A DNA stretch of 39,382 bases, taken from IMG/VR virus record IMGVR_UViG_2923296884_000001; one strand, 5' to 3'. The stretch's first letter is position 1. Every line of letters starts with the position of its first letter. Below the pieces are notes generated by a model that did no database searches, was not told the DNA's origin, and saw only the letters and a list, made by a program, of their open reading frames with translations. This document shows, piece after piece, positions 5,198 to 28,714 of the stretch. A program made the translations under genes and the position numbers. This DNA comes from a virus (Duplodnaviria > Heunggongvirae > Uroviricota > Caudoviricetes).

Positions 5198-5252
5198 TAA
5201 GTAATATGCAGGCGGCGCAGTGCGTCGCCTCTGACTGAAAAGGAGACAACTG

Positions 5253-5627
5253 ATGAAAGATATCGATACTGAAACCCGGAATAACACCGTAGCGGATGAT
5301 GTGACGGCAGGTGAGGATATGGCTGTCGAACGTGGTGTAAAACTTTCCCGGCCAATTGAGCGTGGTGGCGAAAAAATCACATATGTGGAGATCACCGGGG
5401 CTATTGAGCAGGCGGGATCCCTGCGTGGTCTGTCGCTGTCTGATGTGCTGAATCTGAAAGCGGATACCATGTTCACGCTGTTGCCTCGCGTGACCTCGCC
5501 ACGACTGGATGAAGTGATGATTAAAAAAATGTCGTCACGCGATTTTATTCGGTTGTGCGCTGTGGCTGTAAATTTTATGAGCGAGCCAGACTCTGGCGCG
5601 AAGAGCGTGCAGGAGACGGCAGCGTAA
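5253..5627 (+). CDS. E: tail assembly chaperone E
   Basis: 124-aa ORF in the conserved position between tube and tape-measure genes, with an overlapping -1 frame ORF as in P2 E/E'. Confidence 0.85.
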   Translation: MKDIDTETRNNTVADDVTAGEDMAVERGVKLSRPIERGGEKITYVEITGAIEQAGSLRGLSLSDVLNLKADTMFTLLPRVTSPRLDEVMIKKMSSRDFIRLCAVAVNFMSEPDSGAKSVQETAA

Positions 5628-5791
5628 TCACCCTGGTGTGCTTTGAGCACATCGAAGATCTGGTGGCGGATATTGCCGCCATTTTTAACTGGTCGCCCGC
5701 CGAAATCTTCATGATGACGCCCGGCGAAGTGGTTAGCTGGCGTGAGCGGGCGGCACTTCGCAGCGGGAATGCAGATAATGAAGACTCTTGA
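5555..5791 (+). CDS. E': E' extension (-1 frame) of the E+E' frameshift product; true junction lies upstream, about 5525-5555
   Basis: -1 frame ORF overlapping the 3' end of E and the 5' end of T; an A7 run at 5523-5529 sits where the -1 frame opens (stop at 5522-5524 in that frame). Confidence 0.65.
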   Translation: MRCGCKFYERARLWREERAGDGSVITLVCFEHIEDLVADIAAIFNWSPAEIFMMTPGEVVSWRERAALRSGNADNEDS

Positions 5792-8585: not shown

Positions 8586-8591
8586 GGAGTC

Positions 8592-9086
8592 ATGGCCATG
8601 ATGATGATCTATGGCATGTTTGTTTTTGAGCTGCGCACATTGCCGCATCAGCAGTTACAGCAAAACAAAAGCTGGCGGCATGTGAAAAATGAACGCGTTA
8701 ATCGTTCAGCAAGCTGGCAGTATATCGGCGCAGGTGATGATCGCATCGTGCTTTCCGGCGTGCTTTATCCTGAAATTACAGGTGGCGAAGTGTCGCTTTC
8801 GTTGCTGACCACGCAGGCATATACAGGACGCCCCTGGCCTCTGATTGATGGTGTCGGGCAGATTTACGGCATGTATGTACTGACTGAAACGAATACGACC
8901 CGTTCCGAGTTTGATCGCTACGGTAAGGCGAAAAAGATAGAATTTTCACTGACTCTTGAACGCTGTGATGAGGATTTGCGGGAGCGCCTGCAATCCTCAT
9001 CGTTCAGTGATATGCTGTCCGGCTTCAAAGATAAGGTCACATCATCCCTTAACAGCGCGGCCAGCTCCGTTAAAGGGCTGTTTTGA
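8592..9086 (+). CDS. U: tail protein U
   Basis: 164-aa ORF immediately after T with similarity to P2 gpU (MFVFELRTLPHQ... vs P2 MFVFMRQTLPHQ...). Confidence 0.9.
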   Translation: MAMMMIYGMFVFELRTLPHQQLQQNKSWRHVKNERVNRSASWQYIGAGDDRIVLSGVLYPEITGGEVSLSLLTTQAYTGRPWPLIDGVGQIYGMYVLTETNTTRSEFDRYGKAKKIEFSLTLERCDEDLRERLQSSSFSDMLSGFKDKVTSSLNSAASSVKGLF

Positions 9087-9093: not shown

Positions 9094-9123
9094 AAAACCG
9101 CTAATGGTCAGATTAGCGGTTTT
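9094..9123. terminator. palindromic hairpin between convergent U and invertase genes (bidirectional terminator candidate)
   Basis: AAAACCGCTAAT-ggtcag-ATTAGCGGTTTT perfect 12-bp inverted repeat, A-run on one side and T-run on the other; overlaps the invertase stop codon. Confidence 0.5.
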
Positions 9124-9712
9124 CATTTTCCTGAGTCTGCCTGGTTGTTTCTTCAGCCTGTATATCGCCTACAGGGTGATAACGATAAATCGTCGATATG
9201 CCGATGTCGTAAATGATCGCCAGTTGTTTCCTGTCATGACCGTTTTTAATCAGCCTCGCTATTTGCTCGTGTTGTTCTTTTGTCAACTTCGGGCGACGTC
9301 CGCCAATGCGTCCTTGTGCGCGTGCTGCTGCCAGCCCGGCCAGTGTACGCTCTACAATTAATTCACGTTCCATTTCGGCTAAAGCCCCCATGACGTGAAA
9401 AAAGAAACGCCCCATGGGTGTTGATGTGTCAATGCTGTCCGTCAGACTACGGAAATTAACACCTTTTTCCCGCAATTCCTCAATAAGCGTGATCAGGTGT
9501 TTCATACTTCTGCCCAGTCTGTCCAGCTTCCAGACAACCAGCGTATCTCCTTCTGATAGCGTTCTGAGCAGTTTTTTCAATCCCGGTCTGGTTGATTTCG
9601 TTCCGCTGATTTTATCTTCAAAAATCAGTTCACATCCTGCGCAGTTCAGTGCATTGCGTTGTAAATCCGTGTTCTGGTCGTTTGTTGACACACGAATATA
9701 GCCAATTTGCAT
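9113..9712 (-). CDS. serine-recombinase DNA invertase (Hin/Gin/Cin/Pin family)
   Basis: Translation from the ATG at 9712, MQIGYIRVSTNDQNTDLQRNAL..., carries the catalytic serine (GYIRVSTNDQ) and a C-terminal HTH; lies right next to an inverted-repeat-flanked tail-fibre segment. Confidence 0.93.
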   Translation of the reverse strand: MQIGYIRVSTNDQNTDLQRNALNCAGCELIFEDKISGTKSTRPGLKKLLRTLSEGDTLVVWKLDRLGRSMKHLITLIEELREKGVNFRSLTDSIDTSTPMGRFFFHVMGALAEMERELIVERTLAGLAAARAQGRIGGRRPKLTKEQHEQIARLIKNGHDRKQLAIIYDIGISTIYRYHPVGDIQAEETTRQTQENENR

Positions 9713-9726
9713 AAAAAACATCCTCT

Positions 9727-10245
9727 TTGTTTCGTGAAAAATACAGAGTTGGTATAGGTAGGGATAAAAACGAAAACGTTGGTTTAGGAGAAGGCTCGGC
9801 GCTACCCGTTGGTGTGCCTGTTCCGTGGCCCACTGCCACACCGCCAGCAGGCTGGTTACAGTGCAACGGAGCTACGTTCACCAAAGAACAATATCCTGTT
9901 CTGGCCAGAGTCTACCCGACCCTCCGTCTTCCCGATTTGCGCGGTGAGTTTATCCGTGGATGGGACGGTGGTCGCAAGGTTGATACCGGGCGTACGGTAC
10001 TTTCATTTCAGGAAGGGACTATCGTATCCGGTTTTGATGATAATAATACCGGAGATATCAGTTCGCTCGGCTCTACACAATACGGATTTGGTGACGCTTT
10101 AACCTCTAATCAACTGGGGGTCATAAATGGCAAAAAGTGGATATTTGATGCATCCTCTAAAGGTGCACAAAGATATGACTGGTGGGCTTATGTATCAGCT
10201 CGCCCCCGCAATATCGCATTTAACTATATCGTGAGGGCGGCGTGA
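9727..10245 (+). CDS. alternative tail-fibre C-terminal cassette (Hv'), promoterless in the current orientation
   Basis: Opens inside the left inverted repeat with no plausible start of its own (ORF-track start is a TTG); ends ...RPRNIAFNYIVRAA, matching the conserved P2-type fibre C-terminus. Confidence 0.8.
   Translation: MFREKYRVGIGRDKNENVGLGEGSALPVGVPVPWPTATPPAGWLQCNGATFTKEQYPVLARVYPTLRLPDLRGEFIRGWDGGRKVDTGRTVLSFQEGTIVSGFDDNNTGDISSLGSTQYGFGDALTSNQLGVINGKKWIFDASSKGAQRYDWWAYVSARPRNIAFNYIVRAA
9765..9790. other. gix/hix-like crossover site (left)
   Basis: Reverse complement TTCTCCTAAACCAACGTTTTCGTTTT shares its first 17 nt with the right-hand site; resembles the 26-bp gix architecture with AAACC half-sites. 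Confidence 0.5.
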
Positions 10246-10251
10246 TACCGT

Positions 10252-10866
10252 TCAACTGGCAAGTGCCAGTGGTGCTTCCGGCCAGATGATTTCAGGTGCC
10301 GTGCTGATATCCAGTGCGTTCAGCTCGTCGATATAATCCAGCACGGCGTTCAGTTTTGCCGTTTCTTCTGGTGTCAGACTGCGACCAGCACGCAGTTTGA
10401 GGTTGATAAGATCGACGGACGCCATCGCCTGTTTCACCCGTTGCTGGCGTTGCTGTCTGGCAACCTCCAGTTCTGCGGTTCGCTGCCGTTCAGTATCGGT
10501 TACCCACGCCTCACCGTTCCAGGTATCCCATGGCGTGGCTGGCTGTTTTGTGGTGGTGTCCGCCGGGTAATCACCCGGTTGGGTAATCAGAACGGGGTTA
10601 CCGTTCTCCGTGCTGTATACCGTCTCGCCGCGGTGATCAGGCACATGCTCCCACCCGTTCAGCGTGGCAGTCCGGCAAACCACGTAACCCGAAATTGCCT
10701 CCGGCGGTGCATCGGCGCACGAATGTGCCGGAGTACCCACCCCAAGGGCGAGATACTCCACAGAGGATGAGGTGTATTCCCGGGTTTCCTCGTCATAGTG
10801 ATATACAGTGATATCGCCCGCTACAGTGGCGATACCGTTTTCATCCAGAACTGCAGTGTTACTCAT
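10252..10866 (-). CDS. tail fibre assembly chaperone (Tfa / P2 gpG-like)
   Basis: 204-aa ORF translationally coupled (TAATG) to the upstream fibre C-terminal ORF; variable N-terminal half and conserved C-terminal half typical of Tfa proteins. Confidence 0.85.
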   Translation of the reverse strand: MSNTAVLDENGIATVAGDITVYHYDEETREYTSSSVEYLALGVGTPAHSCADAPPEAISGYVVCRTATLNGWEHVPDHRGETVYSTENGNPVLITQPGDYPADTTTKQPATPWDTWNGEAWVTDTERQRTAELEVARQQRQQRVKQAMASVDLINLKLRAGRSLTPEETAKLNAVLDYIDELNALDISTAPEIIWPEAPLALAS

Positions 10867-11108
10867 TAAACTGCCCTCACAATGTAATTAAGTGCAATGC
10901 TACGGGGTCTGACAGTGATACCCTTCGCATACCCGCTTCTGATAGAGGTCAGAATAGTAGCCTGCATACCATTGTCTGACATTGCTATGACAGGATCGCT
11001 GAATGTTGTCCCGTCCGGCATTTTAAAGCTGCCCTCACGAAGGTCTGTAATGGAATCTTCATTGTTGAATCCCATGCCGACTATCCCGAGGTTCCCGTAG
11101 TGTCCTGG
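10866..11108 (-). pseudogene. distal part of the currently fused fibre C-terminus, in a different frame from H (frameshifted end)
   Basis: This frame is open from 11108 and ends ...RPRSIALNYIVRAV, the conserved fibre terminus, while the H frame stops at 11081; the two frames overlap at 11081-11108. Confidence 0.5.
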
Positions 11109-12688
11109 TTATAATAATCCAGCATTGCTGTTCTTAACAGCGTTGCCCCTTGTGCGGACAGCAACTTACGTCCTGTATCAACTTTGCGCCCGTCGTCCCA
11201 TCCACGGATAAACTCACCGCGTAAATCGGGAAGACGGAGGGTCGGGTAGGCTCTGGCCAGAACAGGATATTGTTCTTTTGTAAAGGCGCGCCCGTCGCAC
11301 TTTAACCAGCCTGCTGGCGGTGTGGCGGTGGGCCACGGAACAGGCACACCAACGGGTAGCGCCGAGCCTTCTCCTAAACCAAGGTAATTGAGGACATCTT
11401 TTATACTGCCCTTAGCGATAATAGCGCGACCAATAGCTGTAAGGGTTGCCAGCGCTGCGCGGTCTGCTCCGGTAAAATAAGGCAACCGATCTGCTGCAGT
11501 GGCAAGTCCTGCCAGAGCAGTGAGCGTGGCATCTGCCGGTTGTTTTCCGTTTGCCAGATCGTATGCAGCCTTGACCGCTTTCGGTGTGGCGGCCAGTATT
11601 TCAGACGTGCTGTTGGTGGCGCTACTGAGTTGAACAAGGCCTTTTCGTGCCGTAGTCGCATCCTGAGCGGTATATTTCCCGTTAGCCAGGTCATATGCAG
11701 CCTTAACCGCTTTCGGTGTTGCGGCCAGCGTTTCAGAGGTGCTGTTGGTGGCGCTACTGAGTTGAACAAGGCCTTTTCGTGCCGTAGTCGCATCCTGAGC
11801 GGTATATTTCCCGTTAGCCAGGTCATATGCAGCCTTAACCGCTTTCGGTGTTGCGGCCAGCGTTTCAGAGGTGCTGTTGGTGGCGCTACTGAGTTGAACA
11901 AGGCCTTTTCGTGCCGTAGTCGCATCCTGAGCGGTATATTTCCCGTTAGCCAGGTCATATGCAGCCTTAACCGCTTTCGGTGTGGCGGCCAGCGTTTCAG
12001 AGGTGCTGTTGGTGGCGCTACTGAGTTGAACAAGGCCTTTTCGTGCCGTAGTCGCATCCTGAGCGGTATATTTCCCGTTAGCCAGGTCATATGCATCCTT
12101 AACCGCTTTCGGTGTTGCGGCCAGCGTTTCAGAGGTGCTGTTGGTGGCGCTGCTAAGTTGAACAAAGCCTTTTGCGGTCAGCGAGGCGTCCGGGTGACGT
12201 CGTGACTGCTCGTGCTCTGATATTTTATCATCCACATATTTGCGGGTTGCCAGAACCACAGACGGGTCGATTTTCAGCGTGATGGCTTCGGTGTTCGTGA
12301 CAACCAGAATCATGCGGATAGTCTGGGTGCGTCCACTGCCTTCCTGCAACTGCGGTTTGTACGTTTCCGGGCAGTTTGCCACCGCAATGAGTACACCTTT
12401 ATCATCATAAAGACCAATCTCACGGATCCAGAATCCTCCCTCGCTTTCAGGGATGATTTGCTCCGCAATAATCTGGCTCTGATTGTTAGGGTCAACACTC
12501 AGAAGATTCAGCGGTGCAATGCGTTTCTGGTTAATCAGTTTTGTTTGTGCAGGGTCTGGTGTTGGTAACACACCATTTGCATCACCAACGGCCATTCGCG
12601 TCAGATTCAGCTTACTGCCGAGCATCGTCGCGTTAGCCAGTCGTGCCGCGCCCTGATTAGTCAGAATGGCGTAGTATTTCACTGTCAT
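11081..12688 (-). CDS. H: tail fibre protein H (constant part plus currently fused variable end)
   Basis: 535-aa ORF with a P2 gpH-like N-terminus, five tandem 44-aa repeats, and a C-terminal region that enters the right inverted repeat. Confidence 0.9.
   Translation of the reverse strand: MTVKYYAILTNQGAARLANATMLGSKLNLTRMAVGDANGVLPTPDPAQTKLINQKRIAPLNLLSVDPNNQSQIIAEQIIPESEGGFWIREIGLYDDKGVLIAVANCPETYKPQLQEGSGRTQTIRMILVVTNTEAITLKIDPSVVLATRKYVDDKISEHEQSRRHPDASLTAKGFVQLSSATNSTSETLAATPKAVKDAYDLANGKYTAQDATTARKGLVQLSSATNSTSETLAATPKAVKAAYDLANGKYTAQDATTARKGLVQLSSATNSTSETLAATPKAVKAAYDLANGKYTAQDATTARKGLVQLSSATNSTSETLAATPKAVKAAYDLANGKYTAQDATTARKGLVQLSSATNSTSEILAATPKAVKAAYDLANGKQPADATLTALAGLATAADRLPYFTGADRAALATLTAIGRAIIAKGSIKDVLNYLGLGEGSALPVGVPVPWPTATPPAGWLKCDGRAFTKEQYPVLARAYPTLRLPDLRGEFIRGWDDGRKVDTGRKLLSAQGATLLRTAMLDYYNQDTTGTSG
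11369..11394. other. gix/hix-like crossover site (right)
   Basis: TTCTCCTAAACCAAGGTAATTGAGGA: imperfect dyad of 12-bp half-sites around a central AA, at the outer edge of the right inverted repeat. Confidence 0.5.
11510..12170 (-). repeat. five tandem copies of a 132-bp (44-aa) coding repeat inside H
   Basis: Near-identical 132-bp units at about 11640, 11772, 11904 and 12036 plus a more diverged flanking copy; encode LVQLSSATNSTSETLAATPKAVKAAYDLANGKYTAQDATTARKG. Confidence 0.85.
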
Positions 12689-13293
12689 GCGTTTACTCTC
12701 AGATTATCAATTAAATGAATGGCCGGGGCAGGGAAATAATCCCCTTCGACAATAATGGACTCCGGGGTGTAGGGATAAACCGTCAGGGCGTCGCCGTAAT
12801 AGCATCCCGTACCAACGAAAATCTTTCCGTTCACACTCAGGCTGATCGCCAGCCCCGTCAGATGGCGACTTACTGGTTTTGCATCCGCAATAAGGCGCTC
12901 AAGTTCCTGATACATTTCATCGGTGATGCCCTGATCAAGTACTCCGACAACAATGCGAAATGTCCCAGGCTCCTCATTGAGTTGCCACCACTCCTTTACT
13001 TCAATCAGGTAGCCGAGAGGCTCCACGGCTCTTCGCAGTGCGCTGATGGTCCCTTTGTGTCGGTGTATCAGCCATGCATCACGAATTACCTGTCGCTTTG
13101 TCTCTTCCGGCCAGTTGCGATCCCAGCGGTCAACGGAAAACGCCCAGGCGAGATAAGGCAGCAGATGCACCGGGCAGGTGTCCGGCGACCACAACGTGTT
13201 GAGGTCTACCGGAATGTCTGTAATGCGTGTTCCGACGGCTTCGGCACAACGCATGAAATTGCTGGCTGATGGTGGTAACAACGAATTACTCAT
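12685..13293 (-). CDS. I: baseplate protein I
   Basis: P2 gpI-like ORF; start taken as the ATG at 13293 (MSNSLL..., SD AAGGTGGA); overlaps the J stop and the H start as in P2. Confidence 0.85.
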   Translation of the reverse strand: MSNSLLPPSASNFMRCAEAVGTRITDIPVDLNTLWSPDTCPVHLLPYLAWAFSVDRWDRNWPEETKRQVIRDAWLIHRHKGTISALRRAVEPLGYLIEVKEWWQLNEEPGTFRIVVGVLDQGITDEMYQELERLIADAKPVSRHLTGLAISLSVNGKIFVGTGCYYGDALTVYPYTPESIIVEGDYFPAPAIHLIDNLRVNA

Positions 13294-14182
13294 TGCGTCC
13301 ACCTTCGCTGATGGTGAATGACTCACAGCGCGCCGCCTGTATGTCGCTGATGGCCATATTCTGTGTGGGTTCGATTATCTCCACGCGTTGCACACCGTGC
13401 ACATGCAGTGCGGCAGCAATGGCGGACAACGCCACGTCCTGACCGATAAGCCCCTGCTCAGCCAGCCACTTCCTGAACGACGATTCAGCCGCCGCCAGAA
13501 TAGGTTCGGATTCCGGGCCGGGGTAAAAGTACAGTTTTGCATTCAGCCGCCATGTCACGATTCTGGCGCTCTGTACAGTAAGGCGGTCGGCCACCGGGCG
13601 GGTATCCTCTGCATTCAGAACGGCGCGAACGGTATTAAGCAACGCCTCCGTTGCTGTGCCGTCGCCTTCAGTGGACAGGATGGAAACCGTCACATTTGCC
13701 GGAGACGGACTGATAGCCCGCGCATCACGCACCAGACCGCTGGCGCTGCGGGCAAAATACTCGTATGCACCTGACGGGCCAGCAACACTCAGGCCATCGT
13801 ACGCCCGCTGCGCCCGCAGTCTCAGCGAGGTGTCACTTTCCATCACTGCGTCGGTGGTATCTGTTGCCGGAGTGATGGTCAGGCGCTTTGTGTTCATATT
13901 GCCCGCGAGGTTGTCCAGGTCTGTCCCGGCGCTGTGGCTTAACATGCAGGCGCGTGCCCCCTCATTGACCCGCTGGCGTAACAGCATTTCACGAAAAGAC
14001 ATGGTTTGAGCGATAACGTTCAGGGGTTCCGATTCCAGCTCCAGCGCGGCGGAGACGGCTTCACGCTGTTCGGCAGGATAGGACGCAATCATCATGGCCT
14101 TTGTGTCAGCCAGAATTGCCTCAAAATCAGGCTTCGCGATGATGGCGGGTTCCGGTAACTGGGAAAGGTCAACAGCAGGCAT
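13286..14182 (-). CDS. J: baseplate wedge protein J
   Basis: 298-aa ORF with P2 gpJ similarity and conserved position. Confidence 0.9.
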   Translation of the reverse strand: MPAVDLSQLPEPAIIAKPDFEAILADTKAMMIASYPAEQREAVSAALELESEPLNVIAQTMSFREMLLRQRVNEGARACMLSHSAGTDLDNLAGNMNTKRLTITPATDTTDAVMESDTSLRLRAQRAYDGLSVAGPSGAYEYFARSASGLVRDARAISPSPANVTVSILSTEGDGTATEALLNTVRAVLNAEDTRPVADRLTVQSARIVTWRLNAKLYFYPGPESEPILAAAESSFRKWLAEQGLIGQDVALSAIAAALHVHGVQRVEIIEPTQNMAISDIQAARCESFTISEGGRNE

Positions 14183-14185
14183 GAT

Positions 14186-14536
14186 TTACTCCCTCAGCGT
14201 GATGGTTAACTCAACATTCTGCATGGTCTGCATGACAGTGCCCGACAGCGTCACCCCGGCGCGGCCTCCTGCCTTCCAGACAACGTCGATGGCGTCCAGG
14301 GCAATGCGGGGTTCCCATCGTGTCAGCGCAATCACGGCAGCACTCATGCATTGCAGACGCGTGGTGTTATTCATGGGTTCGTCAATCAAATCAGGTACAA
14401 GGCTGCCATATTCCCGTCGCATAACCCGGCTGGCCAGCGGGGTGGTCAGGATGTCCCTGACTGACTGTTTCAGGTGCTCCGTATCGTTCAGGTTTCCCGT
14501 CCCGTCCGGATTCATTCCTGTGTAGCGGGTTGTCAC
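14186..14536 (-). CDS. W: baseplate protein W (gp25-like)
   Basis: 116-aa ORF between V and J with P2 gpW similarity. Confidence 0.88.
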   Translation of the reverse strand: MTTRYTGMNPDGTGNLNDTEHLKQSVRDILTTPLASRVMRREYGSLVPDLIDEPMNNTTRLQCMSAAVIALTRWEPRIALDAIDVVWKAGGRAGVTLSGTVMQTMQNVELTITLRE

Positions 14537-15114
14537 TGCGGGCCTCCTGTCGAATCGCTGCCACCTTTAACGCCACCGTGTTTATGCGTATGCACTGTGA
14601 TACCGTTTGAGGTGAAATTGCCGCCGCTGTGCGTGATATTGCCGCTCATCTTTCCCCCTTTTGTGACGTCAAGCGTCTCCGTTCTCAGAAGGTTTGTGCA
14701 TTCCACGACGGGCGTGTCCAGTTTCACGCTGACGGATGCCTGTAAAGTGGCCGTTTTCATGCCGCTGGCGCTCAGTGCGCCTGCGTCCGCGTCGTAGCGG
14801 AACACCGCGCCGTCCGGCGCGCTGATCACGATTTCTTTCAGGCTTTTGCCGGGGGCCGGACTGGCATCACTCCACAGGCTGCCAATTATCATGGCGGTTT
14901 CCGGGTTGCCGCCAATGCAGGCAATTACTACCTGTTCGCCTGGTGATGGCGGCAGCCACACATTGAAGGCTCCCGCGCGCGTGGTGTTCCAGCGCAGCCA
15001 GCCTGTTTCCAGTTCGCCGCTGCGAACGCGCACGCGCCAGGACTTCTCATCAACTTCAGAGATGATCCCGGTGCGGATGATATTGCTCAGCAGTCGCATG
15101 AGTTCTGCGCTCAC
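14533..15114 (-). CDS. V: baseplate spike protein V
   Basis: 193-aa ORF with P2 gpV-like spike features; start is the GTG at 15114 or the ATG at 15099. Confidence 0.88.
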   Translation of the reverse strand: MSAELMRLLSNIIRTGIISEVDEKSWRVRVRSGELETGWLRWNTTRAGAFNVWLPPSPGEQVVIACIGGNPETAMIIGSLWSDASPAPGKSLKEIVISAPDGAVFRYDADAGALSASGMKTATLQASVSVKLDTPVVECTNLLRTETLDVTKGGKMSGNITHSGGNFTSNGITVHTHKHGGVKGGSDSTGGPQ

Positions 15115-15746
15115 CGTACAGCCTCCGCAATCCGGCCCAGCACCGTGTTATAAATCAGGCGCTCATCTGCCTGGCTGATACCCAACAGCTCACGTACCGG
15201 GTAATCGGTGAAAATGCCCGGCGCAACCTGATCGCGCTCACCGAACTGATGAACGCGTGCAATACGTGCGGCCACGCCGCTGTAACCTACCGTCACACCG
15301 GAGGCATCTGCACGGGCTTTCAGGTAGCGGGCGGTGCGCAGTTTTACGAACATGGGGACGCGCTTTGTGCTGTCCTGGTTGATGCGCCGGGTGCGTATTT
15401 CCAGAAAACGGTCGATGTCATCCCGGTAAAACGTGCGGATATTGTTTTTATCCTCATCCCACCCGGTGATGGTTCGCCCGTATTTCCCCGTGTCGTGATG
15501 CCAGTTTTTCAGCGTGCGTGCTTCGTTATTCCAGATAAAGCGAATGCGTTCCTGTATCCGGGTTACGCGGCGTCTGCGTGGTGTCCACGCGGTCCCGTCC
15601 GGCGCTTTCTGTGACCGGATACGCGCCTGCTGGGCGCGGCGTAAATCCTGTGCCAGCTTTCTGGCGATGTTATTGATGGCCTGCTGATTCAGGCTGTCGC
15701 GGATGGCCTCAAAGGTTTCATCCACGCGGGTGAATGCCTTATCCAT
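15111..15746 (-). CDS. S: tail completion / virion morphogenesis protein S-like
   Basis: ORF in the P2 gpS position between R and V; longer (about 211 aa) than P2 gpS. Confidence 0.75.
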   Translation of the reverse strand: MDKAFTRVDETFEAIRDSLNQQAINNIARKLAQDLRRAQQARIRSQKAPDGTAWTPRRRRVTRIQERIRFIWNNEARTLKNWHHDTGKYGRTITGWDEDKNNIRTFYRDDIDRFLEIRTRRINQDSTKRVPMFVKLRTARYLKARADASGVTVGYSGVAARIARVHQFGERDQVAPGIFTDYPVRELLGISQADERLIYNTVLGRIAEAVR

Positions 15747-16206
15747 CGCTTTCACCCCACGTCACATCCTGGAATACATGCGACCAGTCGCCTTCGGAAG
15801 ATGGCAGGCGGGGTTTTGGCTCCGGCAGGTGTTCTGCCTGCGGTGTGCCCTGACTGTTGCGCGTGATGCGAACGCGTTCCCGCAGGGGGAGCGTAAACAG
15901 GAGATCGGCGCTGTCATCGTCATTGATAACGGCGGAGAATTTGATGTCCTGATTACGCTCAGGGTTGAGCAACAACTGTGGCTGATTTTCGGATAACCAC
16001 GCCAGCAGCGGCAGCGTGAGGTCGTCCAGCTCTCCGGCGTAATCCATGACAAACATCACCATCTGATAGCGGTAAACAAACGAGGGCGTTTCCCCGGTCG
16101 TTTCAATGTTGCCGCTCTCCACGAAAATGGTGAATTTCTCGGGATTAGCCTGGCACCACCGACACCCATGAAGCATGGACTCTCGCAGACTGTTTGTCTT
16201 AAACAT
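15739..16206 (-). CDS. R: tail completion protein R
   Basis: 155-aa ORF, same length and position as P2 gpR. Confidence 0.85.
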   Translation of the reverse strand: MFKTNSLRESMLHGCRWCQANPEKFTIFVESGNIETTGETPSFVYRYQMVMFVMDYAGELDDLTLPLLAWLSENQPQLLLNPERNQDIKFSAVINDDDSADLLFTLPLRERVRITRNSQGTPQAEHLPEPKPRLPSSEGDWSHVFQDVTWGESDG

Positions 16207-16229
16207 CTGTTTTGCTCTCCTGCTCTTCC

Positions 16230-18107
16230 TTATGCTGCGGGATTATTGATTTCCAGCACCAGGCTGCCGATATCGACGCCATACGTTGCATTTTTGGTAA
16301 TATCCGTCAGCGTCAGTGCATTCAGCCCCAGTGTCAGACTGTCTTTTATGACCTGGAATGCCGGGCCAACCAGTCCATTCAGTTTCGGAGTAACCGTGGC
16401 ACTGCCGGCGGTGAACACCAGCTCCAGCGTCTGCCAGTCGTTACTGTAATTCCCGAACTCGCCCAACTTTGTGTTTCCGGCTTTCTTGTGATGCATCAGA
16501 TTCAGTTTGCCGTCTGTGGTCTGGGTGAAGAACGACATCAGGAACGGGTTACCAGTCCCGGTCATCGCCACGACGTCAGGTAACGCTACATCGGTATACA
16601 GATAAATTCCCAGACCGAACTGGTTGTTGGTCAGTGCGCCTGACAGTCGAAACTTACAGCTCAGTCTGCCACCCCGTGTCAGCAGGGAGACTGCGTCATC
16701 CACCGGGCGCGTCAGGGACCAGGCTTTATTGCTCTGCTTGGCGATCTTAAATACACCATCTGACAACTGAATTCCGCCATTCTTAATGCTCCAGCCCTGC
16801 GCAGCAGCATCTCCGGCTGTCGGCAACAGGGAGATTGTGCGTACGGATGCATCTTCAGACGGCCCCGATGGCGTGTCGCCGCCGGGCGAGGGTTTGATTT
16901 CCGGTGCCTTACCACTGATGAAGGCTGAGGTGCGCCCGGCTGCGTTCAGAATAGCGGTTGCCATACGATCCGGAATAATGCTCCTGCGCGCCCATGAACT
17001 GAAATGTGTCGGGCGGTTTGATGATACCCAATTACCATTACTACGGGATTGCGCGCCGTAATAACCTGCATCAGCAATATCCGGGTCTTCTGCCGGTAAG
17101 TTGGTGGGCGTGTTGTTGCCGTTACCGTCGGTCATGAACGGCACAAAGAAAACGTTGTCGCTCTCCCTGTTTTTGTACGCGCCGTAGACGGAGTCATACT
17201 GTGTGCCGTATGTGTTTTTCCAGTAATACGTCGTGTCGCCACAAATCCACGGTACAACTGCAGCACTGCCGCCATGGCACTGCGCGTTAAATCCGGAAAG
17301 GTCAGTACGGAACTGCTTCAGCATGGCCGTGAACAGGTCCGGTTGCTGTGCGTAGGTGGCAGCGCTCATGTCAAATTCGCCCTGCATCCAGCACACCGCC
17401 AGCAACACATTTTTCGGGTTCTTCTGTAATGCCGCTTTGGTGCGTGCGATCAGGTCCTGATATAACGGTTTACCCACACCCCAGCGTGCCGAATCCTGGC
17501 TGGCCCCCGTGTCCGCACTGAATGTCCCCTCCGCGCCCTGGGTGAATGCCGAACCACCACGACAGCATGGTACCAGCAGGATCCCCGCGTTATTCGGGAT
17601 ATACGGAAGCAGTTTTTTGGCAATATGTAAGCCCTGGCCGACACAGCCGTACTGCCCTTTGCTCAGGTCTGCCTTCGGATGATTCAGTGCGCTCATATCC
17701 TGAACATCATGCAGGCAGTGGTCTGCCGGAATGATGTCGTTAAATGCGCATGCTTTACCACCGGGAGTCACTGTGTTGCGACGGGCCAGTTGCTTAATGC
17801 GTGGGTGGGGCGCATCGTAAGAATCCGGCAGCGGCATTCCCTCACCATATGACATGGCATTGGATTGACCAGCAAGTACCACCACGTAATACCACTCCGG
17901 CACGCTGCCGTGCTGGGGGGAATCAGGTGAGATGTCTGTAGTGCCATCGGCCACCATTGCCTGCATTAGATACCACGGGGTGCCGGGTTCGTAGGCAACC
18001 CGCGTCTCCCCCTGAAGATGCCACCCTTTCGCAAGATGTTCATTCACCTTTTGAGTCAGTTCAGCCTGTGTCATGGCTGTAATCAGTGCAAAGTTCTTAC
18101 TGGTCAT
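16230..18107 (-). CDS. SASA-domain carbohydrate esterase (sialate O-acetylesterase-like, NanS-p-like), 625 aa
   Basis: Contains VVVLAGQSNAMSYGEG (GQSN motif) and WMQGEFD, typical of the SASA esterase family, plus a ~300-aa C-terminal domain; start overlaps the o-spanin stop (ATGA). Confidence 0.75.
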   Translation of the reverse strand: MTSKNFALITAMTQAELTQKVNEHLAKGWHLQGETRVAYEPGTPWYLMQAMVADGTTDISPDSPQHGSVPEWYYVVVLAGQSNAMSYGEGMPLPDSYDAPHPRIKQLARRNTVTPGGKACAFNDIIPADHCLHDVQDMSALNHPKADLSKGQYGCVGQGLHIAKKLLPYIPNNAGILLVPCCRGGSAFTQGAEGTFSADTGASQDSARWGVGKPLYQDLIARTKAALQKNPKNVLLAVCWMQGEFDMSAATYAQQPDLFTAMLKQFRTDLSGFNAQCHGGSAAVVPWICGDTTYYWKNTYGTQYDSVYGAYKNRESDNVFFVPFMTDGNGNNTPTNLPAEDPDIADAGYYGAQSRSNGNWVSSNRPTHFSSWARRSIIPDRMATAILNAAGRTSAFISGKAPEIKPSPGGDTPSGPSEDASVRTISLLPTAGDAAAQGWSIKNGGIQLSDGVFKIAKQSNKAWSLTRPVDDAVSLLTRGGRLSCKFRLSGALTNNQFGLGIYLYTDVALPDVVAMTGTGNPFLMSFFTQTTDGKLNLMHHKKAGNTKLGEFGNYSNDWQTLELVFTAGSATVTPKLNGLVGPAFQVIKDSLTLGLNALTLTDITKNATYGVDIGSLVLEINNPAA

Positions 18108-18415
18108 TGTGTTACTCCCGTCTGGTGTGTCAGTTCGGCTATTCTCTTATCCAGTTCAGCAATGGCCCGTTTATCCGCGTTACAGGTTTCCAGTGCATCC
18201 AGAAGGCGGTCGCCCCATATTCCGAGGTTTCCCCATGTGGGTGGGTCAGGGAAGGGGGGAGGCGTTACCGGCATGGTCAGCGTCTGCGGTATAAGCCGGA
18301 CTGACGGCGCTGGCCCTGGCGCGTTCTGCGTGCCTGCGCAACCTGTCAGTAAAACGAGCGTCAGGCAAAGCGTGGGCGCATTCATCTTTTGCAATATCGT
18401 TGCGTAGCTGTTCAC
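18104..18415 (-). CDS. o-spanin (Rz1/LysC-like outer-membrane lipoprotein)
   Basis: Signal peptide with lipobox LLTGC, proline-rich mature part (PVTPPPFPDPPTW); ORF lies in another frame overlapping the 3' half of the i-spanin gene; start at 18415 or 18385. Confidence 0.65.
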   Translation of the reverse strand: MNSYATILQKMNAPTLCLTLVLLTGCAGTQNAPGPAPSVRLIPQTLTMPVTPPPFPDPPTWGNLGIWGDRLLDALETCNADKRAIAELDKRIAELTHQTGVTQ

Positions 18416-18641
18416 GTCTTACCTCTCCGTCCTGATTGCGTTGCTGATTTTCCGCGCGGAGCTGAGCCAGCACCTGCTGCATATCCTGTACCCCGGCGCT
18501 GATGATATTCAGTGTGTCGACGGTACTTTTCAGGGTGCTGGCCTGCGCTTCGTTTCTGGCGTTCTCCCGGCCCAGCGACCACGACAGACGCATGGATGTA
18601 ATCAGAAGGAAAGCGACGCCAAGCGTGGGCCAGAGCTTCAT
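18246..18641 (-). CDS. i-spanin (Rz/LysB-like)
   Basis: From the ATG at 18641 (MKLWPTLGVAFLLITS...): N-terminal TM helix then coiled-coil; ATGA overlap with the endolysin stop. Confidence 0.7.
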   Translation of the reverse strand: MKLWPTLGVAFLLITSMRLSWSLGRENARNEAQASTLKSTVDTLNIISAGVQDMQQVLAQLRAENQQRNQDGEVRREQLRNDIAKDECAHALPDARFTDRLRRHAERARASAVSPAYTADADHAGNASPLP

Positions 18642-19030
18642 GCCGGATAGGCTCCGTGTGGTAACTGAAAATGCGGTCCGTCTTTCAGGGTCTTCCAGTC
18701 GCCGCCCCATTCCACCGGAATATTCAGTTCCTGGCTGGCCTGTCTGAATGCTGCTGCGATTTTTTCGTACAGCGGCCATTCCCATGACACCTGGTTGCCG
18801 ACATAAGCCACAACATCCACGGCATGCCCTGTGAGATGGCGACTGTTCATGGTCTGGCTCTTGCCTGTGGTCACGAGCTGCTTCTGACGATAACGACTGC
18901 GCAATCCTTCGGTGATACCAAAATCCACTTCCGAGATTTCCAGCGCCCGTCGGGTCACTTTCACCAGATCAGGATTTACACCCTGCAAATTCTTTTCGCT
19001 CCGGCTGCTGAATTTAAATGTGTTGCTCAT
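18638..19030 (-). CDS. endolysin, peptidase M15 (VanY/L-Ala-D-Glu endopeptidase-like)
   Basis: 130-aa ORF with SRHLTGHAVD and DGPHFQL zinc-peptidase motifs; sits between holin and spanins. Confidence 0.8.
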   Translation of the reverse strand: MSNTFKFSSRSEKNLQGVNPDLVKVTRRALEISEVDFGITEGLRSRYRQKQLVTTGKSQTMNSRHLTGHAVDVVAYVGNQVSWEWPLYEKIAAAFRQASQELNIPVEWGGDWKTLKDGPHFQLPHGAYPA

Positions 19031-19350
19031 TCGTTCCTCTCCTTCACCCTGCGATCAAATATTGCAATAACCTTGTCGCGTGCTTTCTCTGCGCCCATAA
19101 AACCGATTGAGGCACCAAAAAACGTCACTGCATCCTCAGGGATCCCGAAGAAGCGCAGCGACCCGGCCACGGCCATGGCAAGAACGCCGCACGCCAGCGA
19201 TCCCGTTACGGTCTGAACCAGTGTTCGTCCGTCATAAAGACTCATCAGCGCGGAAATGCTGACCGCCGCGCCTACTGCATACACCGTTGGCAGGTGGTCA
19301 AAGAGCCACGCAATAACCTGCTCTGTGATCCCTGTTTGAATGGTGCTCAC
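19027..19350 (-). CDS. putative holin
   Basis: About 107-aa product from the GTG at 19350 (SD GGGGGAG upstream) with several hydrophobic helices and a charged C-terminus; lies between X and the endolysin. Confidence 0.55.
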   Translation of the reverse strand: MSTIQTGITEQVIAWLFDHLPTVYAVGAAVSISALMSLYDGRTLVQTVTGSLACGVLAMAVAGSLRFFGIPEDAVTFFGASIGFMGAEKARDKVIAIFDRRVKERNE

Positions 19351-19352
19351 TG

Positions 19353-19559
19353 CTACTCCCCCCACAACTGAATCATTTCTCGTTTCTTCTTCTCCGGCTC
19401 CGGCATCTCCACTTCCTGCCCGGCGTCCAGAAATACCTGCTGACAGAGTCCGGGGTTGGCATCCAGCACCTTTTCGGTGACGCCCTGTGTCGTGCCGTAG
19501 TACCGGAAACAGAGCGAATCCACGGTGTCGCCTTCCAGTGCCTTCACTTTCATCAGCAC
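19353..19559 (-). CDS. X: tail protein X
   Basis: 68-aa ORF with P2 gpX similarity (...FRYYGTT.GV.E.VL.ANPGL...). Confidence 0.85.
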   Translation of the reverse strand: MLMKVKALEGDTVDSLCFRYYGTTQGVTEKVLDANPGLCQQVFLDAGQEVEMPEPEKKKREMIQLWGE

Positions 19560-20056
19560 AGCTCCGCAAACATTCGCGGTCGTCCCAGAATGTCAGAGAT
19601 GGCCCAGCTCACATCGCGCCACAAATCCGATGTCTGTATATCCAGTGCGTCCGCCCGGCGATCGCCCTTGTCCGTTGTGTCCGCATCGCGGTAACGCTCC
19701 AGAATCAGGGCACGTGTGGCGGTATAAACAGCATTGCGCCAGTGCCAGAGATTGACGCTTTCTCCGTTAATTACGGGTGCCGGAACATCGGCCAGCGTCT
19801 GATGGCCAGCCGCCTGCTGTTCCTGCTGCCACGCTTCCAGCTCGCGGGTAACGTGTGCTATGGCCCCGGTGGCGGTATGCAGCAGGCGGGAGGTGGTCAC
19901 GCGGCCCGGCAGTCGTACCGCCAGACGCAGCTCACGCAGCACAATATCCGGCCAGAATGCACCCGCTGAAATACGGGTATCACCATCATCGGTATCGGTG
20001 ATGTCGTCCTCTGCGGGGCCGGGGTTGGTTCTGGCAACCATACTCATGGGGTTCAC
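19553..20056 (-). CDS. L: head completion protein L
   Basis: 167-aa ORF in the P2 gpL position and size. Confidence 0.88.
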   Translation of the reverse strand: MNPMSMVARTNPGPAEDDITDTDDGDTRISAGAFWPDIVLRELRLAVRLPGRVTTSRLLHTATGAIAHVTRELEAWQQEQQAAGHQTLADVPAPVINGESVNLWHWRNAVYTATRALILERYRDADTTDKGDRRADALDIQTSDLWRDVSWAISDILGRPRMFAELC

Positions 20057-20148
20057 TCCTGAAAAAATCGGGCGGTGGGTGTGCGGTGTAAACGGTCACG
20101 GAGTCAAACCGGAACACCGCGCACGCCGCCCGCTGACGGGGTCAGTCG

Positions 20149-20949
20149 TTAACCGCGCTTTGCCTTCTGCGTCGCGGTGGTTTTTCGTGTTGCAGGCTTC
20201 CGCGTTGTCTTTTTACTTTTGCTGCTTTCGTCCTGCGCCTGCGGTGTGCTGGCATCTTCTGGTGCGGCTCCGGAATCAGCTTTTTTCAGGGCGCGGGAAA
20301 GGGTTGCAATCTCGCGTTTCACACCTGCGTTCGGGTTCAGATGCATCGCTTCGCGCAGCAGCTTCAGTGATGAGGCCATGCTGTCCGCATCGCTCAGGCC
20401 ACGGCGGGCAAAGGCGCACGCCTTGCATAATTTGGCGCGCACTTCGTCCGGCATATCCTGGTTGGCGACAATTTCCCAAAGTGTGTCCAGTGGTTCGATA
20501 AAGGCGGATAAATCCGCGTCGGCATCCGTCCCGGCCTGCGTCAGTACCGGGTTGCAGATTTCTTCGGTCAGTACCGTGGCGGCAGTACGTCCAAAGTTAT
20601 CCGGCATGATGAGGTTGTGACGGACCACATATGCACCAATACGCAGCGCCAGCGGAAGATCGCCGCAGTCAATCGCCCACACCATCAGCGTGGCAATCAC
20701 TTCGTCCTGCTGCCCGCCGTCAGCCTCCAGCGTTCCCTCAATCCAGCCGGAAAAGTCCGGCAACAACTCTTTTTTGATGGCGGCTTTCGAGCTTCTGGCC
20801 TGTACGCCCTTAAGCCGGGCCTGTGCCAGACGCAGACGATACAGCACCTCTTCATGCGCGGTACGCGCGGCGTGGTCCACACCTTCATTCGCCCGGCCTG
20901 CGCGCTGTGCCATCACGTTCTGCCAGTGTTGTTGTGCAGGAGTAATCAT
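20149..20949 (-). CDS. M: terminase small (endonuclease) subunit M
   Basis: 266-aa ORF with P2 gpM similarity and a basic C-terminal tail. Confidence 0.88.
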   Translation of the reverse strand: MITPAQQHWQNVMAQRAGRANEGVDHAARTAHEEVLYRLRLAQARLKGVQARSSKAAIKKELLPDFSGWIEGTLEADGGQQDEVIATLMVWAIDCGDLPLALRIGAYVVRHNLIMPDNFGRTAATVLTEEICNPVLTQAGTDADADLSAFIEPLDTLWEIVANQDMPDEVRAKLCKACAFARRGLSDADSMASSLKLLREAMHLNPNAGVKREIATLSRALKKADSGAAPEDASTPQAQDESSKSKKTTRKPATRKTTATQKAKRG

Positions 20950-20994
20950 TTTTTCTCTCCGTTACAGGCGGGCATGATGCCCGCCGTGAGTTGA

Positions 20995-22047
20995 TTAGCT
21001 GTCGGCGAACTTCAGGCCAGTGATCATCGCGCACTTGCCATAGTCTTCAACGACATAAGCGTCATTGATGGACTGGTAGGTGGCGATGCGGTTGTATTCC
21101 GGCTCGTCTTTCATCAGGCGACGCATTGAACCTTTCTGCCAGTAAATCGACAGGTTGTTGAACGAGGTGATCAGCATCGTTGAATCCGGGAAGAACGGCG
21201 CAAGGAATACATCCAGTCCGCCAATGGCGCGCGATGACAGGATGAGCTGTCCGGCAAGTAATTCCGCATTGGGATTCTGGCCGCTGATGCTGTTCAGCAC
21301 GGGCAGACGCAGCGAGTTAAACAGGTTGCGCCCCATAATCACCACGAGGTCGTCAGCTTCCTTGTGCCATTCATCCAGCAGGGATGAGCGCGCATCCTGT
21401 ACCAGAGCATCGGCATTCGCATACTTACCCGCGTGCGCCACAGTGTTGTCCATGTTGCGGGAGGTCAGCGTCACGTCATTCATTACGCGCTCGCTGGCAT
21501 CGGTTCTGATGTGCTCCAGCCAGCCCACGTTTACGTCCTGAAGCAGCTTGTTGGTGTGAAAATCAGACTCGTAGGCGTGGGATGTGCCGTTAAAGCCAAT
21601 CATGATGCGATCAAGCGCTACCTGCCGGGCGATCTGTGTACTGATACGGGACTGAAAATCGCTGTGGGCCGCCCAGGTATCAAGCTGTGGGTACGAAATA
21701 AAGGTATCGTAGTTCACCTGTTCGCACTGGTACTGACGAGACTTCATATCGATCACGTTATTCGGGTTACGGCGTTTGATGCCGTCATAACTGCTATTCG
21801 TGCGCGCAATTGGCCCGGTGGTGTCCAGGAGGATTTTTTCGCCTTTCTGGTCGGTCACGCCGATCACGTTAATTCTTTTCGTAAATTCGGTACTTTCCTT
21901 TGAGGCGTTTTCAAAACGTTGCTGCACCGCGGGTTCCACGGTAAATCGCGATACCAGTGCGGAAACCGGGATATTGTTAAGCGACGCCTGCTGCGCCATA
22001 TAGCAACCCAGCTTGTTGCGGGTAATATCTGACATCACCAGATTCAT
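20995..22047 (-). CDS. N: major capsid protein N
   Basis: 350-aa ORF with P2 gpN similarity; AAGGAG SD before the ATG at 22047. Confidence 0.92.
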   Translation of the reverse strand: MNLVMSDITRNKLGCYMAQQASLNNIPVSALVSRFTVEPAVQQRFENASKESTEFTKRINVIGVTDQKGEKILLDTTGPIARTNSSYDGIKRRNPNNVIDMKSRQYQCEQVNYDTFISYPQLDTWAAHSDFQSRISTQIARQVALDRIMIGFNGTSHAYESDFHTNKLLQDVNVGWLEHIRTDASERVMNDVTLTSRNMDNTVAHAGKYANADALVQDARSSLLDEWHKEADDLVVIMGRNLFNSLRLPVLNSISGQNPNAELLAGQLILSSRAIGGLDVFLAPFFPDSTMLITSFNNLSIYWQKGSMRRLMKDEPEYNRIATYQSINDAYVVEDYGKCAMITGLKFADS

Positions 22048-22070
22048 AAAAAATTTGCTCCTTTGTCTTA

Positions 22071-22907
22071 TCAGAAGTCAGCCAGTTGATCGGAGGCTGC
22101 GCCCGTTGCGGTGAACCGGTTCTGCGGATCGCCGTCCTGCGTGCGCAGTTTTTCCTTCAGTGCTGTCAGCTCTGTGGTCAGTAAAGTGATTTTCTGGCTG
22201 TCCTGCTGATGGCGGGTTTCCAGCGCATTAAAACGGTCGATAATGTCGGCCTGTGACGTTGCGACGCCTTCCACCGCTTCCTGAATACGGGAGAAACTGG
22301 CGTCATCCGCTTTGCGGCCACGGCCAATAATCCCCATTACGCGGTTAAACCACTGGGTGCCTTCTTCCTGGCGTTGTTCTGCCATTTCGATGATTTCAGA
22401 CTCGATGGCTTCGGAGATAAGCGGTGCTTCACCCTGGACACTGTTGAACGTCATCACCGCCTGACGTTGCTGTGCCGTGAATTTCAGGCGTTCAGTGCCC
22501 AGGCTTGCCGGGGTGTCGGTCATCGCCAGCCCGACCAGATAGGCGCGCCCGTTAACGGAGAACTGCGGGTGCAATTCGATACTGGAATAGATTTTCTTGC
22601 CGTCCGCGACAAGCTGCTTCATGCGCTCGGTCGGTTCGATTTCTGCATACAGCGCAGTACGTCCGGCCAGCGGACCTTCCGTAATGTCTTCCGTACTCAG
22701 CGCGGTGACATCGCCCATTGCGGAAAATTCGCTTGACGGGCATGGCGAGAGATAGTGCTCAACGTTCACGCGGGCGGCGTAAACATCCGGGTTGAAGTTC
22801 TCGGCGGCTTCACGCAGATGCACCGGACTGATTTCGCGGCCATCAACAGTTGATCCGGAGACAGCCACGCGAAACTTTTTGCGGGATGTCTTTTTTTCAT
22901 TAGCCAT
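22071..22907 (-). CDS. O: capsid scaffolding protein O
   Basis: P2 gpO-like ORF; start refined to the ATG at 22907 (MANEKK..., SD GAGGGG). Confidence 0.88.
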   Translation of the reverse strand: MANEKKTSRKKFRVAVSGSTVDGREISPVHLREAAENFNPDVYAARVNVEHYLSPCPSSEFSAMGDVTALSTEDITEGPLAGRTALYAEIEPTERMKQLVADGKKIYSSIELHPQFSVNGRAYLVGLAMTDTPASLGTERLKFTAQQRQAVMTFNSVQGEAPLISEAIESEIIEMAEQRQEEGTQWFNRVMGIIGRGRKADDASFSRIQEAVEGVATSQADIIDRFNALETRHQQDSQKITLLTTELTALKEKLRTQDGDPQNRFTATGAASDQLADF

Positions 22908-28398: not shown

Positions 28399-28710
28399 TT
28401 ATTCGGGAAATAACGCCCGGATATTTCCGGCCATCTGACTGGTTATCTGTGCGGCTGATACTGGCTGTGACGCGGGGCGTTCTGTCCTGGTTTGTGTCAT
28501 TGATAACGCCTCATCATCAGCCCATGCAGCCAGTCGGTAAGCCTCTGCCGGATTCATTTTCAGTAGTGCCAGCCCGGCCAGAAAAGCCACGCGTTGACCA
28601 CTTTTGCGGGCTTCTGGTGTAAGGCTGTCCAGCCAGGCGCATGCTTCGCCTTCGTTCTTGACGGCGGCGGGCTTCAGATAGAAACTTATCCGTCTGGTTG
28701 GTGTCGTCAT
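28399..28710 (-). CDS. parR: ParR-like partition adaptor (103 aa)
   Basis: ATG at 28710 four nt after the parM stop, SD AAGGAG; N-terminus ISFYLKPAAVKN...VAFLAGLALL resembles plasmid R1 ParR (IAFKLNPDVN...AALTAGLALY). Confidence 0.7.
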   Translation of the reverse strand: MTTPTRRISFYLKPAAVKNEGEACAWLDSLTPEARKSGQRVAFLAGLALLKMNPAEAYRLAAWADDEALSMTQTRTERPASQPVSAAQITSQMAGNIRALFPE

Positions 28711-28714
28711 TGGT

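Follow-up and report, generated by a model that had tools for sequence, protein, structure and literature searches.

The stretch of DNA analyzed here (IMG/VR virus record IMGVR_UViG_2923296884_000001; 39,382 nucleotides, hereafter "the window") carries a nanS-p-type gene, which lies between the lysis genes and the tail genes of a P2-family prophage and is predicted to encode a sialate O-acetylesterase. Every sequence-level feature that defines the NanS-p family is present in the protein, which supports its assignment to this family and underlies the predicted activity. The RefSeq entry for the esterase (WP_021522495.1) is named only "DUF6645 domain-containing protein." The gene and the parts of its product are as follows, with positions given in the window and amino acid (aa) numbers in brackets.

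16230..18107, minus strand: nanS-p-type gene for the 625-aa, 67-kDa sialate O-acetylesterase; uninterrupted open reading frame (ORF) with an ATG start.
17943..18107, minus strand: N-terminal DUF1737 domain (aa 1-55), of a subtype termed P-type; Pfam match at aa 4-53, 28.6 bits, E = 1.3e-6.
17901..17942, minus strand: linker 1 (aa 56-69, TDISPDSPQHGSVP), predicted to be disordered; predicted local distance difference test score (pLDDT) <50 at aa 56-67.
16932..17900, minus strand: SGNH/SASA catalytic domain (aa 70-392), homologous to chromosomal NanS (YjhS); match to structure 3PT5 and conserved NanS blocks.
16833..16931, minus strand: linker 2 (aa 393-425), 33 aa, Pro/Ser/Gly-rich and predicted to be disordered; pLDDT <50 at aa 399-422.
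16233..16832, minus strand: C-terminal lectin-like jelly-roll domain (aa 426-625; DUF6645); match to structure 6YP6, Pfam match and all-beta AlphaFold2 (AF2) model.

Matches to DUF1737, SASA (aa 75-271, 49.5 bits) and DUF6645 (aa 476-586, 69.1 bits, E = 4.5e-19) all exceed the curated cut-offs of Pfam; a preliminary description of this DNA had proposed the first two. The protein is matched end to end by phrog_143 (1083 bits), and an NCBIfam scan gave no family match. The structure 3PT5, which is that of the 9-O-acetyl-N-acetylneuraminate esterase NanS (YjhS) from E. coli, aligns with residues 69-388 at E = 3.6e-122. The NanS-like catalytic domain reaches approximately aa 390, well past the Pfam SASA match. 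The active site of 3PT5 is formed by the blocks GQSNA (Ser19), RGGSAF, MQGEFD and R-x-SHFS (His301) (PMC10792757), and the importance of the Ser and His of NanS has been confirmed through mutagenesis (PMC10017367). All four blocks are kept in the esterase, as GQSN at aa 80-83 (S82; codon 17862-17864), RGGSAF at aa 183-188, MQGEFD at aa 241-246 and HFSS at aa 368-371 (H368; codon 17004-17006), and they are invariant in 24 homologs. Both motifs named in the preliminary description, GQSN and QGE.D (QGEFD, aa 242-246), are therefore present, and the catalytic Ser and His match the NanS residues on alignment.

The C-terminal part (aa 430-622) matches 6YP6, which is the C-terminal domain from phage phi24B's NanS-p protein (E = 1.9e-29). 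A full-length AF2 model (mean pLDDT 69) contains three folded units that are split by disordered Pro/Ser-rich linkers, with an all-beta C-terminal domain (pLDDT about 80-90). This domain had been put at approximately 300 aa, but comprises only ~200 aa (426-625) after the 33-aa linker, because the model places disorder at aa 399-422. A simple hydropathy check found no signal-peptide-like or transmembrane segment in the esterase (N-terminal hydropathy maximum 1.0).

Thus, the esterase shares its catalytic domain with chromosomal NanS over aa 69-388, including all SGNH blocks. However, NanS has a single domain and is periplasmic, and it belongs to the NanR regulon (PMC3658417), whereas the phage protein has additional N- and C-terminal domains, lacks a signal peptide and is placed under phage late regulation. 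Its architecture is instead that of the NanS-p proteins of lambdoid and Shiga toxin (Stx) phages (933W Z1466/L0105, the "yjhS" of Stx1a phages, and the copies of EDL933 and O104:H4), which likewise consist of DUF1737, SASA and DUF6645, match phrog_143 over their full length, have no signal peptide, and are encoded by late genes beside lysis genes. All NanS-p alleles tested previously, including five of O104:H4 strain C227-11 and those of EDL933, are active on 5-N-acetyl-9-O-acetylneuraminic acid (Neu5,9Ac2) and mucin (PMC8065619; PMC5923452). By analogy, the esterase presumably acts on the same substrates.

The gene is flanked by the following features.

19027-19350, minus strand: holin, first gene of the lysis cassette (Pfam, PHROGs, RefSeq).
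18638-19030, minus strand: M15 endolysin (Pfam, PHROGs, RefSeq).
18246..18641, minus strand: lysB (i-spanin, DUF2570); phrog_214, E = 1.7e-39; RefSeq coordinates.
18104..18415, minus strand: lysC (o-spanin, Rz1-like); PF23793, E = 1.6e-13; Rz-like spanin in PHROGs; RefSeq start at 18364.
18104..18107, minus strand: ATGA overlap of the esterase start and the LysC stop, read directly as LysC ...GTA ACA CAA TGA and esterase ATG ACC AGT AAG.
16207..16229, minus strand: 23-nucleotide (nt) spacer that leads from the esterase stop to the ATG of R and contains an AGGAG ribosome-binding site; read from the sequence, with no hit in a terminator scan.
15739-16206, minus strand: tail completion gene R; PF06891, E = 1.7e-38.
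15111-15755, minus strand: tail completion gene S; PF05069, E = 8e-28.

The lysC gene is embedded in lysB and overlaps it, and the ATGA at its end bears out the start overlap reported in the preliminary description. In P2, lysC directly overlaps R, and the absence of a P2 gene at this site had also been stated; the O operon there runs through lysC, R and S to a terminator after S. According to this map, the essential genes R and S lie downstream of the esterase gene within the same operon. Scans for Rfam families and tRNAs found no match in or near the esterase locus.

The window matches the chromosome of E. coli U15A (NZ_CP035720), a urinary isolate, with 100% identity. The window starts within serS and spans a complete, serS-adjacent prophage of the P2 family. 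Apart from a few cassettes, this prophage is collinear, at 91-97% nucleotide identity, with P88, a viable phage of the genus Xuanwuvirus (family Peduoviridae). One of these differences is the esterase cassette.

16165..18159, no strand assigned: whole cassette relative to P88; 1,995 bp in place of 93 bp of P88 (blastn and alignment of the junctions).

The replaced stretch takes in the final ~16-18 codons of lysC and the initial ~14 of R. The junction of lysC and R is empty in P88, Xuanwuvirus P884B11, phage 500465-2, Chuche, PhiR44_2 and one Citrobacter phage. Among 5,426 complete E. coli genomes, the whole occupied junction is found in 371, the N-terminal coding segment of the esterase in 374 (about 7%), and the empty P88-type junction in 689; thus, approximately one-third of P88-type junctions are occupied. 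In 37 of the 40 matches listed, the N-terminal coding segment is adjacent to lysC, and in 365 of the 374 genomes the nucleotide identity of the N-domain is at least 99%. The carriers include sequence type 131 (ST131) strains, bovine O26 strains and the O104:H4 outbreak strain 2011C-3493, and span the serotypes O104:H4, O26 and O25b. The O104:H4 copy is 96% identical to the esterase and differs by a single substitution within aa 1-375. More distant relatives are also present at this site, since P2-like viral contigs whose capsid protein is only 62% identical encode a homolog of 645-656 aa at the same lysC-R position. The cassette is a discrete, clean 2-kb accessory cargo within the late operon of a P88-like prophage.

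Cargo (moron) sites of P2-like phages, such as orf30, Z/fun and tin/old in P2, likewise hold dispensable cassettes that are present or absent among close relatives at fixed junctions of a late region that is otherwise conserved. However, the classical morons of P2 form transcription units of their own, frequently on the other strand, and orf30, for example, follows the terminator of the O operon. In contrast, the esterase cassette is inside this operon and coupled to lysC by its start; its expression should thus be that of a late gene, and transcription has to pass through it to reach R and S.

Some records related to the cassette have unusual structures. The spacer between the esterase gene and R is 23 nt in the window but ~300-400 nt, without a long ORF, in divergent P2-like contigs (L007, 9971-10373; L013, 5218-5520). 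Three P2-like GenBank phage records described as "complete" genomes are broken inside nanS-p and not at cos: PV468777, which starts at the position equivalent to 16644 of the window, and ON470599 and ON470623, which end in the gene. The probable cause is assembly affected by the repeat, or breaks at prophage boundaries. PV468777 annotates nanS-p only as a misc_feature.

A comparison with other NanS-p copies reveals a mosaic. Relative to the NanS-p of an Stx1a phage (L003), the esterase is 82% identical overall, but this figure is composed of 33% in the N-domain, 90% in the catalytic domain and 85% in the C-terminal domain. The corresponding values for another lambdoid copy (L053) are 31% (aa 1-55), 98% and 91%. 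The pattern is opposite for the homolog of a divergent P2-like phage (L007), which is 55% identical in the N-domain, 71% in the catalytic domain and 36% in the C-terminal domain. Within the close P2-like group, the N-domain is identical and the catalytic and C-terminal domains vary (88-100%). Evidently, the enzyme module has been exchanged between P2-like and lambdoid prophages, with a breakpoint at the boundary of the N-domain, as judged from these alignments.

Junctions between P2 and lambdoid DNA are also located inside nanS-p in three chimeric contigs. One of them (L017, which is the same as L043; 8001-15734) carries P2-like gpN, gpL, LysB and LysC and the P-type N-domain, after which come a lambdoid holin, lysozyme, Rz and Nu1/gpA terminase. 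The other two (L082 and L086) are reciprocal chimeras, with the lambdoid L1 subtype of the N-domain upstream and P2 gpR and gpJ downstream. These arrangements could either be genuine, produced when prophages recombined or inverted across their common 2 kb of homology, or result from assembly collapse at the repeat.

The preliminary description had likened the locus to the NanS-p arrangement of lambdoid prophages. The likeness holds for protein architecture and late-gene status, but not for gene position: Stx phages have nanS-p between stxB and the holin gene, upstream of the lysis genes, whereas the gene here follows the spanins and precedes the tail genes. In the arrangement first described for lambdoid phages, nanS-p comes after Q/stx and before holin S. 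The carrier also differs, being a P2-family myovirus instead of the lambdoid phages of known NanS-p proteins.

P-type N-domains are recognized by the signature ...EPG[T/V]PWYLMQAM. A tblastn search of 50,697 phage records matched this domain in only three P2-like phages and in no Stx phage record. Only 10 representatives were found by an exhaustive phmmer search of 1.84 billion proteins, and among 111 NanS-p loci all 39 with the P-type N-domain are P2-like, with LysC, gpN and gpL upstream. A word-indexed protein search with the N-domain alone returned just truncated or frameshifted fragments. Two candidates for standalone N-domain proteins (P0011 and P0013) were rejected, because each is really the N-terminal part of a full-length esterase that is interrupted by a frame error or the end of a contig. 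The AF2 model of the N-domain (pLDDT 82) is ordered as strand-helix-strand-loop-strand (E4-11, H14-26, E29-40, E43-54) and matches standalone DUF1737 proteins of many phages in BFVD with template modeling (TM) scores of 0.7-0.85. A Foldseek search of this model against the PDB found nothing significant (best E = 0.19, dodecin-like folds), and the phi24B capsid model was unmatched or missing from the PDB copy searched.

We consider it quite likely that the esterase is an accessory cargo of the NanS-p family, carried by a P88-like prophage of the P2 family within its late (O-type) operon and released by lysis. A scan of the locus found three promoter-like sites where 4.6 are expected by chance and nine terminator-like sites where 7.5 are expected, and the terminator scan detected no terminator-like signal on the coding strand between the esterase gene and R. 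The sole upstream promoter-like site (18133-18106) has a -10 element that overlaps the ATG; with a promoter count below chance, an own promoter for expression in lysogens was therefore rejected. Coupling to lysC through ATGA, the lack of signals of its own and the position before R and S indicate that the esterase should be a late gene. The earlier proposal that it is expressed with the lysis cassette is thus a sound inference.

According to this interpretation, the gene would be silent in a lysogen and would be transcribed from the Ogr-dependent late promoter only in cells whose prophage has entered lytic growth. The esterase, without an export signal, would accumulate in the cytoplasm until it is released through lysis by the holin, endolysin and spanins that are encoded directly upstream. 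Outside the cell, it could be targeted to glycans by its lectin-like domain and would remove 7/8/9-O-acetyl groups from free and mucin-bound sialic acids. The resulting N-acetylneuraminic acid (Neu5Ac) would be open to sialidases and usable by surviving sibling lysogens. Part of the esterase may exit attached to the virion via DUF1737. This scheme parallels lambdoid nanS-p genes, which are induced with late genes and stx and whose activity supports population growth (PMC8065619; PMC5923452; PMC8319020).

Several points weigh against the proposal of lysis-released cargo. The full-length AF2 model is mediocre, and several loops of the catalytic domain have low confidence. P2-type phages are classically not SOS-inducible, which bears on the frequency of lysis and the amount of enzyme released. 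The public-good benefit for sibling lysogens has been demonstrated only in lambdoid prophages of enterohemorrhagic E. coli (EHEC). Also, it is probable but not certain that the five active alleles of O104:H4 include the P2-like one (WP_000202135).

It is conceivable, albeit rather unlikely in our estimate, that the esterase is also a virion accessory protein, in which the P-type DUF1737 oligomerizes on the gpN hexamers of the T=7 capsid and displays the esterase and lectin modules. The displayed modules would bind and deacetylate sialoglycans of mucus and might be shed later by cleavage of the Ser-Pro (SP)-rich linkers, adding to release by lysis. Association with the virion had already been raised as an alternative in the preliminary description, and it has direct support for a homolog. 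This idea derives from phi24B, whose NanS-p homolog gp84 (vb_24B_21) is an abundant virion protein (bioRxiv 10.64898/2026.04.10.717836). The DUF1737 domain of gp84 (residues 2-57) forms a hexamer in the pores of facet-center hexons with Tyr42 as anchor, and its esterase and lectin parts are cleaved off over time (bioRxiv 10.64898/2026.04.10.717836). The two proteins are 53% identical overall, but identity falls to 22% for the N-domain and 36% for the C-terminal domain. They have the same domain order, the same topology of the N-domain (one helix and three strands, as predicted here) and SP-rich linkers at both domain boundaries. Moreover, linker 1 resembles the SISSP region where the density of gp84 ends (sequence comparison with bioRxiv 10.64898/2026.04.10.717836).

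Other observations also favor display on heads. The predicted topology of the N-domain matches DUF1737 proteins of many phages, and the P-type is exclusive to P2-like contexts, while the enzyme module is common to lambdoid phages at 90-98% identity. The loop that holds the capsid-contacting Tyr42 of phi24B is the most divergent part between subtypes. The enzyme module is also found on a tail-fiber N-terminal anchor and on a third N-terminal domain; the former implies that virion attachment modules are interchangeable. In addition, the esterase gene sits among late genes for the head and tail, and hexamers of gpN can bind external proteins such as Psu and Sid of P4 (PMC7552001).

However, the Tyr42 "tooth" of phi24B aligns to Thr43 in the P-type N-domain, where the loop reads VAYEPGTPWY and not LISTAGYGAEF. 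Binding could still be possible despite this loss, because the aromatic residues Y39, W45 and Y46 are nearby. The capsids are also dissimilar, in that phi24B has a capsid protein of PF13252 and a triangulation number of T=9, whereas the capsid protein of the carrier here is of the P2 gpN family with T=7, and a T=7 shell is without the flat facet-center hexons to which binding of gp84 was restricted. Furthermore, P2 capsids have been described as lacking decoration proteins (PMC7552001). The exclusivity of the P-type can be explained by vertical descent together with recombination that cannot cross the poorly conserved N-domain. Finally, the lambdoid L1 N-domain, with all 55 aa identical, is found next to head modules of two unrelated kinds, the lambda gpA/gpE type and the HK97 type (PF05065). 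Because of this, there is no one-to-one mapping of subtypes to capsid families, and a strict model of one DUF1737 subtype per capsid family was rejected. We thus offer only tentatively, and by analogy, the view that the P-type DUF1737 might anchor the protein to the capsid and be adapted to the gpN shell found in P2-like phages, so that P88-like virions with the cassette would display esterase and lectin on their heads. If this is true, the protein would be the first decoration protein, and the first case of enzymatic head display, in the P2 family, and NanS-p proteins would consist of interchangeable virion-attachment modules on one shared enzyme module.

Three kinds of N-terminal modules are seen on this enzyme, which are the DUF1737 subtypes, PF08400 and an uncharacterized domain of ~105 aa. 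In one protein of 917 aa (P0104), the SASA and DUF6645 module follows a tail-fiber N-terminal domain (PF08400, E = 9e-49) and a coiled coil. Two others (P0074 and P0124; 682-689 aa, with 535 and 50 member sequences) have the ~105-aa domain, which has no Pfam or PHROG match, in front of SASA and DUF6645. A P-type NanS-p (P0023) carries a phage tail Collar domain joined to its C-terminus.

The enzyme could alternatively act on bacteria, by removing O-acetyl groups from the O-antigen, from the K1 polysialic-acid capsule or from other polysaccharides on the surface of E. coli. As a receptor-modifying enzyme, it would aid progeny phages in adsorption or in escape from debris. The gene is phage-borne and expressed late, the lectin-like domain could bind bacterial glycans, and the hosts include lineages of extraintestinal pathogenic E. 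coli (ExPEC), some of which produce sialic-acid capsules. A bacterial substrate has also been suggested for NanS-p in a review (PMC8065619). Nevertheless, the closeness of the catalytic domain to NanS, the activity of tested NanS-p enzymes on Neu5,9Ac2 and mucin sialic acids, the many carrier serotypes, which have no obvious tie to one surface polysaccharide, and the viability of cassette-free P88-type phages make this alternative improbable.

Least probable of all, to a degree that we consider very small, is a neutral passenger, that is, a piece of lambdoid DNA that illegitimate recombination placed in the lysC-R junction and that hitch-hikes without function; this would fit a dispensable cassette, absent from the 689 genomes with an empty junction, and nanS-p copies that recombine promiscuously into chimeric contigs, but not an ORF that is intact (in 374 genomes, as judged by the N-terminal coding segment) with all catalytic residues kept, the near-identity of the N-domain among these genomes, the precise coupling of its start to lysC with a preserved ribosome-binding site for R, or the homolog at the same site in P2-like phages with a 62%-identical capsid protein, which speaks for long-term retention.

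What is new at this locus is the carrier phage family, the insertion site and the subtype of the N-domain, whereas the enzyme and its presumed role are known. Among the publications that we searched, none ties nanS-p or DUF1737 to P2-like phages. NanS-p has been treated in the literature as a feature of Stx and other lambdoid prophages of EHEC, and the family described there includes copies from non-Stx prophages (PMC10462455). Long nanS paralogs were noted by Vimr (2013) in prophage remnants of ExPEC (PMC3658417). The locus thus widens the mobile nanS-p gene pool beyond lambdoid phages, and P2-borne nanS-p is common in extraintestinal and commensal E. coli. It also means that 2 kb of near-identical DNA is common to unrelated prophage families, and this DNA appears to generate P2/lambdoid chimeras. 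As a natural domain swap, in which the same enzyme is joined to a different DUF1737, the P-type protein bears on the question raised by Vimr in 2013 about the flanking domains of phage nanS paralogs. An answer to this question has begun to emerge for phi24B from a 2026 preprint (bioRxiv 10.64898/2026.04.10.717836), and with the P2-specific, anchor-like domain and the modular N-termini, the function of the flanking domains becomes open to direct tests.

Several other features of the prophage were noted. The sheath-tube-E-T-U block (3501-9085, plus strand) is opposite in orientation to the V-W-J-I-H block (10900-22900, minus strand), gpD and ogr, unlike in P2. Since P88 has the same layout, the orientation from sheath to U is characteristic of the genus rather than the product of a rearrangement in the strain. 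The gpD gene (2234-3475, minus strand) is an intact ORF whose product is 96.7% identical to the 366-aa gpD of P88 (residues 1-366). The RefSeq annotation instead has a 266-aa "VgrG/Pvc8 family" protein and an adjacent pseudogene, and its start for gpD was probably called too far downstream. A reading of the inverted tail block and a truncated gpD as signs of a defective prophage was therefore rejected.

The main stretch that differs from P88 is the tail-fiber region (~9706-13003). An invertible tail-fiber segment (9112-11385) has 229-nt inverted repeats at 9776-10004 and 11157-11385 that are 90% complementary. A Hin/Cin-type invertase gene (9112-9711) adjoins the repeats, and an alternative tail-fiber C-terminus and assembly genes lie between them.

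In the early region, Rfam models for the C4 antisense RNA (78.5 bits; 33305-33392, minus strand) and the Hfq-binding small RNA isrK (72.4 bits; 33428-33502, minus strand) match as direct neighbors, beside an "ash family" pseudogene. This pair suggests an antisense immunity module of the P1/P7 type in a P2-like phage. Plasmid segregation genes of the ParM/partition type follow the replication gene (28399-29674, minus strand), and a hok/gef toxin gene (1599-1739, minus strand) is located at the end nearest serS; P88 has both as well.

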